Shown here: in pieces, positions 59,829 through 64,000 of the stretch | How the letters are laid out: each line of letters opens with the position of its first letter | Numbering within the stretch: position 1 is the first letter of the stretch | Source of the DNA: Ostreococcus lucimarinus | Taxonomy: Eukaryota | Strand: one strand, 5' to 3' | NCBI GenBank assembly: GCA_000092065.1 | Contig: CP000594.1 | Length of the DNA stretch: 64,000 nucleotides | Position numbers and translations under genes: made by a program | The notes under the pieces: model-generated | Told to the model about the DNA's origin: nothing | The model's input: the letters and a program-made list of their open reading frames with translations, nothing else | Database searches by the model: none

Positions 59829-60428
59829 ATGGACGCCGAGACGGTGACGAGCGCACTGCGCGCGGCGTCGAAAGTAGGTTCTGCCGCAGTGGTCATCATC
59901 GAGGTGTGCGACGCGAGCGACGATCCGTCGTCATCGACGTTCGTGTTTCAACGGAAAACGGCTGGATATCCCGCGGCACACTTCGTCGGTTCGCTGTGTT
60001 TATTTGGCGGCAACGCTGAAAAAGAAGACGCGACGGCGCGCGCGACGTTGGAGAGGGAGCTCGCAGAGGAGCTTCCGGACGCGTTCGTAAGCGTCGTCAT
60101 GGCTAACGCGCGCGCGCACGGGCGGTACCTCGTTGCGGACGCGAAAGGCGCGTACGCTTTCATCGCGTGCGCGTTCGCGGCGAGGATACGCGCGACCAAC
60201 GTCGACGTCGACGCGCTAGTCACGGATGAAGGCGAATTAGCGGTATTAAGTGTCAGTCAGTGTGGTTGTGAGTCGTTCGCGTGGTCGTACGATCGCGTCT
60301 TCCGGGACTATCTCGTTCTTCGCGATGGCCCGCACGACGTCGTTGAGGATGCACAAGGCGAACGGCGCGATGAAGCCGTCAAAATATCCGACGACGCGGA
60401 CGTCGGCGAATGGGCGGTACTCGTGTGA
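59829..60428 (+). CDS. Hypothetical protein, possibly a divergent Nudix-fold hydrolase.
   Basis: ATG 59829 (MDAETVTSALRAAS...). Degenerate Nudix-box-like segment GGNAEKEDATARATLERELAEELP, compared with GX5EX7REUXEEXGU. Low certainty. Confidence 0.35.
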   Translation: MDAETVTSALRAASKVGSAAVVIIEVCDASDDPSSSTFVFQRKTAGYPAAHFVGSLCLFGGNAEKEDATARATLERELAEELPDAFVSVVMANARAHGRYLVADAKGAYAFIACAFAARIRATNVDVDALVTDEGELAVLSVSQCGCESFAWSYDRVFRDYLVLRDGPHDVVEDAQGERRDEAVKISDDADVGEWAVLV

Positions 60429-60489
60429 ATGATACTGTAGAATTAGCAACGGTAAATTATATTATTTCAACTTGTAGAAGGATGGCTGT

Positions 60490-60561
60490 ATTTATTGAGT
60501 TTCACGGTATCATTTATTGAGTTTCACGGTATCATATTTATTGAGTTTCACAGTATCATTC
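60490..60561. repeat. Three tandem copies of a ~24-bp AT-rich unit (TTTATTGAGTTTCACGGTATCAT) in the convergent 3' region between the Nudix-like gene and the P2X gene.
   Basis: The sequence is ggctgtatttattgagtttcacggtatcatttattgagtttcacggtatcatatttattgagtttcacagtatcattcgtt. Confidence 0.8.
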
Positions 60562-62356
60562 GTTACCGTCTTCGTCGTTAAAGTACTCGCGCATCTTTTT
60601 CACGAGCGCTTGCTCTTCTTTGTCCATCCTGATGATCTTCCTCAGCATGTCGTTGTCCATCGGACCTTCAGTGGTCAACTCGACCCATTCTTCCAAATCG
60701 ATTTTCACGTTCTTGAGTTGACTGTAAGACATTCGCGGCAAACCCTTGGCGTAGCGCTCTTGCGCGTGGCGATCGGCGGTGAGCATGATGTATTTGGACA
60801 TTTGTCTGCACTCGTCAAGCGTGAGACGACGCGATTTGAACTTGTCCGCGTCGAAATTTTCCGATCCCCTTTCGGCGACAGACATTCCGTCGACGCTGTG
60901 GAACGCCTCGACGAGGAGTTCGTAGATTTCTTCAATGTCCAAACCGTCGCCGCTACGCTTGGTGTCCGCGGCGCGGAAGGAGTTCACCGCCATCGCGCCT
61001 TGGATGGCGTACTTTGCGGCTTCGCGTTCAAAGCTCGCGGGCTCCAACATGTGGTTGGAGTAGACGAGTGAACGCGTACCGAGTCCGTACATCGCGACGA
61101 TATCGCAAATCGAGCCCGCGACCTTCAACAGCACGAGACCAGAAACGAGGACGTTGATCAAATACACGTAGTTCACCGAACCAATGATTCCGCTCGTGGT
61201 GACGTCGATGAAAACGCCGTAAGCGTACATGTTGATAAATGTCCCTGTCGGTTTCCCATCGTCCAGGTCGATGGGATCGTCGAGGTCGGTAATCGTCGAT
61301 CGGTACTGGATGCGCTGGCCCTTGGACGTCCAATCGATAGAAGGCTCGATTTCGAGCACGGCATACGGACTATCGCCGTCGGAGATGTCGTCCGAAGCGC
61401 TCGCGGTGTGCAGGTTGTAGTTGTAGTACTGAAGCTTCGCGTTGATGCGCATACCAGCGAGACGGGCCATGGGGGTCACGCTCGCGCTGCCGCCCTTGCC
61501 GTAAAACACGGATGGGTCTCTGCCGGCGAACGCCACTTGATCTTTGTACGTCTTATCGAGGTCGATGTTGGCGACGTCGAGAATATCCTTCAGCTTGAGA
61601 GAGATGTACTGACCGGCTGGGATAATTTTCAAATTCGTCGAAGATCCGGGTCGGCGCACGTACGTCTTCGGATTCGCGGCATTCGCGAGACCTGAGAGCG
61701 TGTCAAACTCATGAGAAATCCCGATGCTCGAGTGCTCGGCGCCGATGGTCAACCAATCGGTTACGCTCTCATAATAGCAAACGCCGTTCGATCCAGCCAC
61801 GCTCACGGGGTCCACATTGCCCGCACCGTTCGTAAAACCGCCATAAGCCACGCAGTTACCAGAGGGTTTCAGGGAGCGATGAGTAATCGTCTCGGTCACG
61901 TGCGTCGTGATGAACATACCTCCCGCCGGTTCTTTCGAGATGATTTCATCCGGCGTCAAGTAACCGCACTTGACGTTGTCGTACACCCAAGCAGTGTCAT
62001 AGTTGAACGCGTACGACGAATTCAGCGTCGCAGACGCAGCGCTTGCGCACGGCAGCACCGGGTACGTCTTCCCGTCGGTGTACGTCTTGGTCGTCGCCGC
62101 GGTGGCGGCGGCGGCGTCCACCTGCGCGGTGTAAAAGTCGTCGTTCCCGTTCCCCCAGTTCGTCACTCGACCGATCGGGACTTCGGTCCGCAGGTACGTC
62201 TTCCCGCGTACCAGAGCATAGACGACGTAAAACACGATGACGGCTTGCAGCGCGACGTTCAGAAGCGCCAGTCTCCAATCTATGATCTTCACGAACTTGG
62301 ACGTCTTGTAGCCCATCTTGCGCGACAGCGCGGTGGCGAGCGTGACCCACCCCATG
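60556..62356 (-). CDS. P2X: P2X receptor-like ATP-gated cation channel (two TM helices and a large Cys-containing ectodomain) with a ~230-aa C-terminal cytoplasmic extension.
   Basis: ATG at 62356 (MGWVTLATALSRKMGYKTSKFVKIIDWRLALLNVALQAVIVFYVVYALV). The YxTxK pre-TM1 motif and TM1 are present. The ectodomain has conserved Cys/Gly-rich segments. The second TM is VNYVYLINVLVSGLVLLKVAGSICDIV. An acidic tail follows. The upstream part of ORF 60556..62751 is a non-ATG extension. Confidence 0.7.
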
Positions 62357-62472
62357 ACTCGCTGACGGCGAACGCGAAGTGACGCGTCCAAGTTGGATGT
62401 TTGCTTGATTCCCCTCGAACGCCGGATATCGCCGCAAAGGTCGTCGCGTCGGTCGGTCGGCGGCGGCGCGAC

Positions 62473-63381
62473 ATGACGGTCACCGCGGAAAAGACATCGA
62501 ACGACTTCTTCGCCATGGTGGACGCGTTCAGGATGGATGCGGGGCGAGCGGTGAAGGTGACGGGAAAAGTCGTTGAGTTTGACGATGACGCGGCTGACGC
62601 GGCGACGGAATGCTTTCGCGGTGACGAAGACATCGAGGACACGTTCGAGACGACGTACGACGCACTTCGGGTGTGGCGAGCGCAGAACGCATCGACCTCG
62701 GATGTCGACGCGTTTCACGCGTTCATGGTTTCGCTGCGACAGCGTCCGCAAGCTCGATGGCAGTGCCTCGTCGCCGCGCTCATGAGCGTGCAGTGTTTGG
62801 ACAAAGTGGCGCTGCGAGCGTTCGAAACGTTGCGAGATTCTACGCTAGACAGAGAAGTGACGCTAGAGGCGATCGCGGCGATGTCGACGCGCGAGCTCGA
62901 GCAACATCTGTCGACGTTAAACTTGTTCCGCGTCAAGGCGAAGTATATTCGAGCGTGCGCAGACGTCATTCGGCACAAGTTTCGAGGCGAAGTACCTCGC
63001 ACAGTGGGAGCACTCAAGACGTTGCCTGGTGTAGGGGACAAACTCGCGCACTTAGTCGCGTCAGTTTCGTACGGCGGCGACGAAGACGGCTTCGCGGGAA
63101 TCGTCGTTGACACGCACGTAAAACGCGTAGCGAAGAGACTCGGTTGGGCGCAAGCGGGCGACGATGTGGAAAGTGTGCGCATGTCGGTGCAGGCGCGCGT
63201 CAAGAGAGAGGAATGGGAAGCCGCGACGCTCGGATTGATAGCGCTTGGACAACGATTTTGCCACGCGAAAGCGCCGGCGTGCGCGGCGTGTCCAGTGAAC
63301 GCGTCGTGTCCGAGCGCGCCGCGGACCTACATCGACGCGCGCATCGACGAGTGCTTCAAAGACGGCGAATATAGCGACTAG
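62473..63381 (+). CDS. NTH1: Endonuclease III homolog (NTH1; HhH-GPD base-excision DNA glycosylase with [4Fe-4S] cluster loop).
   Basis: ATG 62473. LPGVGDKLAHLV...GIVVDTHVKRVAKRLGW (HhH-GPD with catalytic Lys/Asp). The C-terminus is CHAKAPACAACPVNASC (Cys-X6-Cys-X2-Cys-X5-Cys FeS motif). Confidence 0.85.
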   Translation: MTVTAEKTSNDFFAMVDAFRMDAGRAVKVTGKVVEFDDDAADAATECFRGDEDIEDTFETTYDALRVWRAQNASTSDVDAFHAFMVSLRQRPQARWQCLVAALMSVQCLDKVALRAFETLRDSTLDREVTLEAIAAMSTRELEQHLSTLNLFRVKAKYIRACADVIRHKFRGEVPRTVGALKTLPGVGDKLAHLVASVSYGGDEDGFAGIVVDTHVKRVAKRLGWAQAGDDVESVRMSVQARVKREEWEAATLGLIALGQRFCHAKAPACAACPVNASCPSAPRTYIDARIDECFKDGEYSD

Positions 63382-63814
63382 CAACGATAGGAAACAGAGC
63401 GACGAATATAACAAAACGATCATCGCGCCACAATACGATTCCCCACGCGCCGCCGTCGTCGGCCCCGGTCTCCCAGCGCGCCGTCGTCGCCTCCCCAAAC
63501 CGCACCTATCGAGATGTCGATCACCTATCGAGATGTCGATCAAACGAAAGTCGCACGGGCAGTCGCGGAGAACGATGACGATGAAATGTAGCGCCACGCC
63601 AACGATGAATATCTCATGTATCTATATTCTGTTTGCGGTGCCGTGCTGGTCGATGAGTGATGGCCGCAGGGTGTCGTGAAGGTGCACAGGAAGGATGCGA
63701 ATGCTAGTGACTTTTCGGGTTTAGTACGACCCAGAGAACCTAGGGTGAGGTGTAATAAGTATTAGCTAGCCGGTCGGTTACGGCACTTCTCCCGAAGCGC
63801 CTCCCTCCCTCATG

Positions 63815-64000
63815 CTTAGGGTTTAGGGTTTAGGGTTTAGGGTTTAGGGTTTAGGGTTTAGGGTTTAGGGTTTAGGGTTTAGGGTTTAGGGTTTAGGGTT
63901 TAGGGTTTAGGGTTTAGGGTTTAGGGTTTAGGGTTTAGGGTTTAGGGTTTAGGGTTTAGGGTTTAGGGTTTAGGGTTTAGGGTTTAGGGTTTAGGGTTTA
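63815..64000 (+). repeat. Telomere: about 26 perfect (TTTAGGG)n repeats, G-strand 5'->3' toward the window end, running to the edge.
   Basis: The sequence is catgcttagggtttagggtttaggg... and continues to 64000, preceded by the C-rich ctccctccct. It is the plant/green-algal telomere repeat type. Confidence 0.95.

Follow-up and report, generated by a model that had tools for sequence, protein, structure and literature searches.

P2X receptors are taken as a hallmark of ionotropic signalling by adenosine triphosphate (ATP), and those of prasinophytes are routinely cited as evidence for ancient ionotropic ATP signalling in the green lineage. The cloned ATP-gated receptor of Ostreococcus tauri, OtP2X, is a protein of 387 residues encoded on chromosome 7 (CAL54489) with a half-maximal effective ATP concentration (EC50) of ~250 uM; intact O. 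tauri cells gave no ATP response, and four open reading frames (ORFs) distantly related to P2X were reported from O. tauri in 2008, with similar ones from O. lucimarinus (Fountain et al. 2008, PMC2397467). The Dictyostelium receptors P2XA-E are intracellular receptors of the contractile vacuole, with an 'ectodomain' that is thought to be luminal on the organelle membrane (PMC2397467; Fountain 2013 review). Here, a stretch of 64,000 nucleotides from O. lucimarinus (GenBank assembly GCA_000092065.1, contig CP000594.1; hereafter the window) was analysed with respect to an intronless gene on its minus strand at 60556-62355, close to a telomere. The 599-residue product, referred to below as the window protein, is probably a P2X-fold channel subunit that carries a cytosolic EF-hand module and is opened by something other than ATP in the canonical pocket.

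The window protein was searched against Pfam and matched the P2X receptor hidden Markov model (HMM; PF00864, P2X_receptor) at E=5e-8, its 32.8 bits exceeding the gathering score of 27; this was the check that the initial annotation of this DNA had proposed for its P2X assignment. The best stretch covered only residues 15-65, next to the first transmembrane (TM) helix, and 27 of 28 relatives also matched the model. Searched alone against PDB sequences with phmmer, the protein gave weak TM-proximal matches only (E ~2e-3), and profiles and fold comparison were required. A profile of the 28-member family searched against the same sequences returned human P2X4 (hP2X4; reference sequence 100% identical to 9bqh_A) at E 6.6e-8. 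Global hhalign against a P2X4 alignment gave a probability of 99.1% and E 1.6e-17, and default local hhalign covered the pre-TM2/TM2 segment only. An AlphaFold2 (AF2) model was obtained with a mean predicted local distance difference test (pLDDT) score of 70.9, mostly 75-89 in the ectodomain, and was compared with PDB structures using Foldseek; the top 50 matches were all P2X receptors (best E 1.9e-15, probability 1.0, ~430-480 aligned columns). On this modelled structure and the profile matches, the P2X fold of the window protein is well supported. No second P2X-like gene was found within the window.

Topology was read from hydropathy, the AF2 model and alignment to known receptors, and agreed with the YxTxK motif before TM1, the two TM helices and the ectodomain of more than 300 residues described in the initial annotation (all features of this gene lie on the minus strand). 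The YxTxK/R motif (Y16-K-T18-S-K20, within MGYKTSKF; 62296-62310) occupies residues 16-20 of the cytosolic N-terminus and aligned with hP2X4 Y15-D-T-P-R19; in the family its positions hold Y/F in 93/115, T in 71/121 and K/R in 109/123 members. TM1 (residues ~29-51; 62203-62271) corresponds to a hydropathy peak and to an AF2 helix at 27-51, and was aligned to TM1 of P2X4, P2X2 and P2X7. The extracellular or luminal ectodomain (residues 52-393; 61177-62202), which spans ~345 residues between the TM helices, was assigned the P2X body fold by Foldseek and hhalign. TM2, the pore helix (residues ~394-425; 61081-61176), was placed by hydropathy, an AF2 helix at 396-424 and the best-scoring part of the alignment to P2X4. 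It carries S405-G406 (hP2X4 hinge S341-G342), K411 and D418 (hP2X4 D354, rat P2X2 (rP2X2) D349). The pre-TM2 strand Y377-A-Y379-G380 is conserved, Y379-G380 corresponding to hP2X4 Y315-G316; G380 is invariant in the family, the hinge Gly is present in 98/159 members and the SGL motif is kept. Across the wider family the TM2 Asp is found in 36/159.

The ectodomain includes a lineage-specific insertion at residues ~72-131 and four cysteines (C103, C130, C168, C193) that are invariant or nearly so in the family. At most two of these align to canonical cysteines: in a low-confidence global alignment, C168/C193 fell on the head-domain pair C126/C149, and C103/C130 lay inside the insertion. A lack of the ten conserved ectodomain cysteines had been named beforehand as grounds for abandoning the P2X assignment, and the protein has only these four. 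The count is not decisive, since cysteine conservation differs widely among the primitive P2X receptors cloned, and the functional OtP2X and Monosiga receptors each lack two (Fountain 2013 review).

In zebrafish P2X4 (zfP2X4), K70 and K72 of one subunit coordinate the phosphates of ATP together with N296, R298 and K316 of its neighbour (PMC4460280); these correspond to hP2X4 K67, K69, N293, R295 and K313. Single changes at the phosphate residues of canonical receptors lower ATP potency and may leave the receptor generally ATP-insensitive (rP2X2 K69C), and ATP binding was found to require them (PMC4460280). The window protein has W67, N69, R348, Q350 and Y377 at the five positions. W67 was placed on K67 and N69 on K69 in an alignment that was ungapped from TM1 through G70 in phmmer, hmmsearch and hhalign; Y377, adjoining the invariant Y379-G380, was placed on K313 by the same three methods. 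The NFR strand corresponds, with moderate confidence, to S344-K-G346-Q-R348-I-Q350, as placed by the global alignment of a 62-member alignment and by how the final four ectodomain strands are ordered in the model. Residues were then counted in an alignment of 175 family members to the family HMM. The K67 position held W in 90, Y in 18 and F in 13 of 135 members and Lys in none; the K69 position held E (38), S (28), N (12) and K (7); and the K313 position held Y in 127/161 and K in 3. At N293 the commonest residues were D (39), E (30) and K (19), at R295 T (31) and S (22), and at K190, for which the mapping is weaker and the window residue is S214, E (45) and D (41). The canonical phosphate-binding site is, as judged from these alignments, absent from the window protein; even the divergent yet functional OtP2X keeps the Lys69/Lys308 equivalents (PMC2397467). 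The initial annotation of a P2X-type ATP-gated channel therefore stands as to the P2X superfamily, on the HMM, profile and predicted-fold evidence, but not as to ATP gating, given W67, N69 and Y377 in place of K67, K69 and K313.

The tail after TM2 comprises 174 residues (426-599), fewer than the ~230 first estimated. It contains a cytosolic EF-hand pair (residues ~442-561; 60673-61032) in the order helix, loop 1, helix, linker, helix, long degenerate loop 2 (ending VKIDLEEW) and helix, followed in the AF2 models by a long amphipathic C-terminal helix (residues ~568-596; 60568-60654) and the acidic end NDEDGNE. Loop 1 (DTKRSGDGLDIEE, residues 464-476; 60928-60966) was aligned with, and is homologous to, the canonical 12-residue loops of relatives, such as DSSGSGNLDIDE and DEDKNGSLDQGE. 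Sixteen of 28 relatives matched Pfam EF-hand_1 at the homologous position, and the canonical pattern D-x-[DNS]-x-[DNS]-G-x-[ILV]-x-x-x-E was found strictly in 50 and in relaxed form in 84 of the 135 members having the region. A profile of the tail searched against PDB retrieved EF-hand chains, namely radial spoke protein 7 (E 2.3e-6), calbindin (6.6e-5) and calmodulins (~1e-2). The paired helix-loop-helix arrangement of an EF-hand domain is present, and in both models L472 and I552 are joined by a short beta-bridge of the kind typically seen where EF loops pair. The tail was present in full-length relatives of 26-97% identity, and since these cover 94-100% of the query, it belongs to the family. 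The Ca2+-binding-like loop pointed out in the initial annotation thus does lie in an EF-hand-type module, but in the window protein it is non-canonical, with 13 residues (one extra) and Lys at ligand position 3, and a Pfam EF-hand search of the window protein alone gave no match. Across the family, loop 2 is degenerate. From the loop sequences, Ca2+ binding by the family is plausible.

To place the gene among its relatives, 5.8 billion proteins were searched, and 73 relatives were retrieved; the nearest cluster was 97% identical and had 428 members, many proteins were ~60% identical, and distant relatives of 545-630 residues had 26-35% identity. A search of 1.84 billion cluster representatives with the family HMM gave 1,636 matches at E<=1e-3, 717 at E<=1e-10 and 155 at E<=1e-30, and the top 150 all outscored canonical P2X4 by far against the family profile. 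By these scores the window protein falls within a large branch of its own in the P2X superfamily, made up of picoplanktonic green algae and many metagenome-derived sequences. One EF-hand-tailed member of 34% identity was located on a 191-kb contig of 49% G+C, away from subtelomeric sequence and near genes for actin, tubulin and RPC5; from this contig, with its eukaryotic genes, the family reaches other picoeukaryote genomes of different base composition.

The O. tauri relative (592 residues, 53% identity) is annotated 'P2X purinoreceptor' and is encoded on chromosome 15 (CAID01000015.2) at ~506-508 kb of 511,330 bp, where the region 500375-511330 was compared. One gene, Peptidase_S9, lies between it and a TTTAGGG telomere, which makes it second from the end. 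Peptidase_S9 was common to the window, the O. tauri locus and the locus of a further relative; an SMP_MUG190-like gene was common to the O. tauri locus and the 97%-identical relative, GCV_H to the O. tauri locus and the further relative, and a DUF3419-methyltransferase to the window and the further relative. These shared neighbours indicate orthology with the O. tauri 592-residue gene and a conserved subtelomeric position. The telomere-side flank differs, being an HhH-GPD gene in the window and Peptidase_S9 in O. tauri.

The coding sequence is complete, consisting of 599 codons and a TGA stop at 60556-60558 in an uninterrupted frame, and the translation from 62355 begins MGWVTLATALSRKMGYKTSKF. 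Exactly the same 599-residue protein was called as a gene on an independent Logan contig (SRR23274481). Residues 1-13 are kept in orthologs, so M1 at 62355 is the likely start; the start had been given as 62356, one nucleotide off, where the frame is filled with stops, and a clean ORF is read from the ATG at 62355. A mechanical ORF at 60556-62751 on the minus strand extends 396 bp beyond this start, yielding 731 residues from a TTG and overlapping the opposite strand of the HhH-GPD gene; the abundance of long ORFs that overlap on the two strands here is a by-product of ~61% G+C.

Substitution rates were compared between strains. The ratio of nonsynonymous to synonymous substitution (dN/dS) was 0.32 against the 91%-identical relative, and whole-gene values in the strain comparison were 0.32-0.76, with too few changes against the 97% relative to judge; read from these sequence comparisons, the gene is under purifying selection. 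Substitutions and small indels between the close strains (97% and 91%) clustered at residues 72-122 and 162-189 (~61789-62142), and the TM helices and tail were almost invariant. The two variable patches may be exposed, fast-evolving surfaces; there were too few changes to test positive selection. Divergence from the 91%-identical relative was mosaic, with a synonymous rate (dS) of 0 in the 174-codon tail (60559-61080), 0.22 in the ectodomain and 0.39 in the N-terminus and TM1, a pattern that points to recombination or gene conversion among strains, or to a metagenome contig that is chimeric.

The window protein would be a subunit of a membrane channel with the P2X fold, presumably a trimer as in every P2X receptor structure solved. 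The subunit would consist of a cytosolic N-terminus bearing YxTxK, TM1, the ectodomain and a pore-lining TM2 with hinge Gly406 and Asp418. The EF-hand pair would begin ~15 residues after TM2 and be followed by the long C-terminal helix. Its inter-subunit pocket, without the canonical lysines, would be lined by aromatic, polar or acidic residues, and the assembly would conduct cations when triggered by something other than ATP in that pocket. Where relatives have canonical loops, the EF-hand module beside TM2 may couple cytosolic Ca2+ to gating; in the window copy, with its degenerate loop, a fixed conformation or a partner protein may be coupled to gating in place of Ca2+. More tentatively, marine picoalgae and many other organisms known solely from metagenomes could share a large unrecognised class of trimeric P2X-fold channels that do without ATP, carry their own EF-hand Ca2+ sensor and answer to another extracellular or luminal ligand.

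Several observations weigh against this proposal. Ca2+ binding by the window copy is doubtful, as judged from the insertion in loop 1, the Lys at position 3 and the lack of a Pfam EF-hand match, and a Foldseek search with the tail gave no significant match. The positions equivalent to N293, R295, T186 and K190 were mapped from low-confidence stretches of a global profile alignment and from strand order; global alignments from two query alignments disagreed in the middle of the ectodomain, so that the mapping is weak for T186/K190 and moderate for N293/R295. Furthermore, R298 of the window protein is invariant (152/155), and position 378, an Ala in the window protein, is basic in 97/161 relatives; to go by sequence, these two positions could form a different anion site, and ATP or another nucleotide could bind at a site so re-modelled.

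An alternative reading is that the gene encodes a genuine ATP-gated P2X receptor with a long regulatory tail, ATP being bound as in OtP2X and Dictyostelium P2XA or at a re-modelled site. The Pfam score above cut-off, the P2X fold and the retention of YxTxK, the TM2 hinge Gly and the TM2 Asp would all be expected of such a receptor, a paralogous O. tauri member of the family is ATP-gated (PMC2397467), the O. tauri ortholog bears the purinoreceptor annotation, and the invariant R298 with other basic residues could serve a divergent phosphate site. We nevertheless consider it unlikely, with all five phosphate-coordinating positions altered, and aromatic, acidic or polar family-wide, when single substitutions at these residues in canonical receptors are enough to cut ATP potency (PMC4460280) and the very divergent but functional OtP2X still keeps the key lysines (PMC2397467). 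Less probable again is a non-conducting P2X-fold sensor, scaffold or surface protein in which the variable ectodomain is what matters, for example in virus or cell interactions. Such a role would fit the clustering of close-strain differences in the two ectodomain patches beside almost invariant TM helices and tail, the subtelomeric position and the poor conservation of the TM2 Asp in the wider family. It fits poorly with TM2 and the pre-TM2 strand being the parts best conserved relative to real channels, down to the invariant G380, the hinge Gly and SGL, and with the retained two-TM topology and YxTxK; the strain comparison, moreover, holds too few substitutions for diversifying selection (dN/dS 0.32-0.76).

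That the ORF is a decaying subtelomeric paralog or a product of mis-assembly, and non-functional, is hardly credible. The telomere is close, and mechanical ORFs overlap on both strands in this GC-rich DNA, but the 599-codon frame is intact, the identical protein was recovered from an independent assembly, hundreds of metagenome copies exist (the 428-member cluster), dN/dS is 0.32, and orthologs stand at the conserved position in O. tauri and other relatives. We prefer the reading of a P2X-fold channel subunit that has an EF-hand module and is probably not opened through the canonical ATP site.

Telomere repeats (TTTAGGG)n of period 7 (26.4 copies, 100% matches) were found by repeat search at 63816-64000 (+). 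They begin 1.46 kb beyond the P2X-like start codon, in keeping with the distance of 1.5 kb given at first. The only gene in between, and the last before the telomere, encodes an HhH-GPD/endonuclease III-like DNA glycosylase with a C-terminal Cys cluster (62473-63381, +; Pfam E 5.8e-17). It and the P2X-like gene diverge from a 117-bp intergenic region (62356-62472, from the coordinates) presumed to hold a promoter used by both. Between the HhH-GPD gene and the telomere, the non-coding subtelomeric DNA at 63503-63542 contains a perfect 19-bp direct repeat (CACCTATCGAGATGTCGAT, 2.1 copies). On the other side, a convergent gene (59829-60428, +) encodes 199 residues with a Nudix-box-like motif, GGNAEKEDATARATLERELAEEL, and scored below the cut-off for Pfam NUDIX (E 0.0013, 19.2 vs 21.1 bits). 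In the 97% relative, the genes that correspond to it next to the P2X-like gene have no recorded Pfam family, and no similar gene was found at the O. tauri locus. This neighbour was considered as a functional nucleotide link and rejected, the locus being eukaryotic, the Pfam score below cut-off and the gene absent from the O. tauri locus. A ~24-bp unit (TATTTATTGAGTTTCACGGTATCA) in three tandem copies at 60489-60560 fills the 127-bp gap between the NUDIX-like and P2X-like genes and runs into the P2X-like stop codon; the two genes may share it as a 3' end or terminator element. TOC159 is also encoded within the window, as befits a plastid-bearing green alga. The glutamate 5-kinase of this genome has 76% identity to the O. 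tauri enzyme and 83-85% to metagenome clusters, in line with an Ostreococcus-like alga distinct from O. tauri.

The gene itself is not new, P2X-like ORFs having been noted in Ostreococcus in 2008 and the ortholog being annotated as a P2X purinoreceptor. No description of an EF-hand-bearing or ATP-site-lacking P2X family was found in the literature searched, coverage of which was incomplete; what is new relative to that literature is that ATP ligands are lacking family-wide, that an EF-hand pair is fused to the P2X fold and that the branch is so large. The label 'P2X purinoreceptor' here covers a P2X fold without any of the canonical ATP-phosphate ligands, and because the family is large (717 representatives at the E<=1e-10 level) and lacks these ligands, counts of algal and protist 'P2X receptors' may exaggerate the extent of purinergic signalling. 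The family amounts to a natural experiment in re-using the P2X scaffold with another ligand. If the proposal holds, a Ca2+-regulated channel family with a different ligand has been hidden under a purinoreceptor annotation.

Compared with OtP2X, the window protein belongs to the same superfamily and algal group and has the same two-TM topology and YxTxK motif. OtP2X is, however, a different paralog, and the window protein is orthologous to the 592-residue chromosome 15 protein. Where OtP2X keeps the equivalents of Lys69 and Lys308, the window protein has W and Y, and where OtP2X has Asn at the TM2 Asp position, the window protein has Asp418; OtP2X is also ~200 residues shorter and without a comparably long tail, only a YESWL motif having been reported in its C terminus (PMC2397467). 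Vertebrate P2X4 (PDB 9bqh, 4dw1) was the best match in both sequence and fold, with TM1, the pre-TM2 strand, the SG hinge of TM2 and the Asp all aligning, and its head-domain disulfide C126-C149 may persist as C168-C193 (low confidence). The two nevertheless share only ~15% identity over the fold and differ in ectodomain cysteines (10 in P2X4 vs 4), in K67, K69, N293, R295 and K313, none of which is conserved in the window protein, in an insertion of ~60 residues after beta1 of the window protein, and in its 174-residue EF-hand tail, against a C-terminus of ~30 residues in P2X4.

The Dictyostelium P2XA-E receptors resemble the window protein as protist P2X proteins with poorly conserved ectodomains, and a luminal placement like theirs could apply to it; they differ in being ATP-gated, with the key lysines retained and short tails. 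P2X7 is the only canonical P2X receptor with a comparably long cytosolic C-terminal extension and was among the Foldseek matches. Its tail consists of a Cys-rich anchor and a 'ballast' domain that binds guanosine diphosphate (GDP) and zinc, whereas that of the window protein is an EF-hand pair; set apart by these descriptions, the EF-hand tail looks to have been acquired independently of the P2X7 tail. In polycystin-2/TRPP2, which has a C-terminal EF-hand, and in plant TPC1, a cytosolic EF-hand pair follows or interrupts the pore domain and adjusts gating in response to Ca2+. The window protein has an analogous architecture of pore domain and cytosolic EF-hand; TRPP2 and TPC1 are tetrameric 6-TM channels against a presumably trimeric 2-TM one, with unrelated pore folds, and the likeness is one of functional analogy only, not homology.

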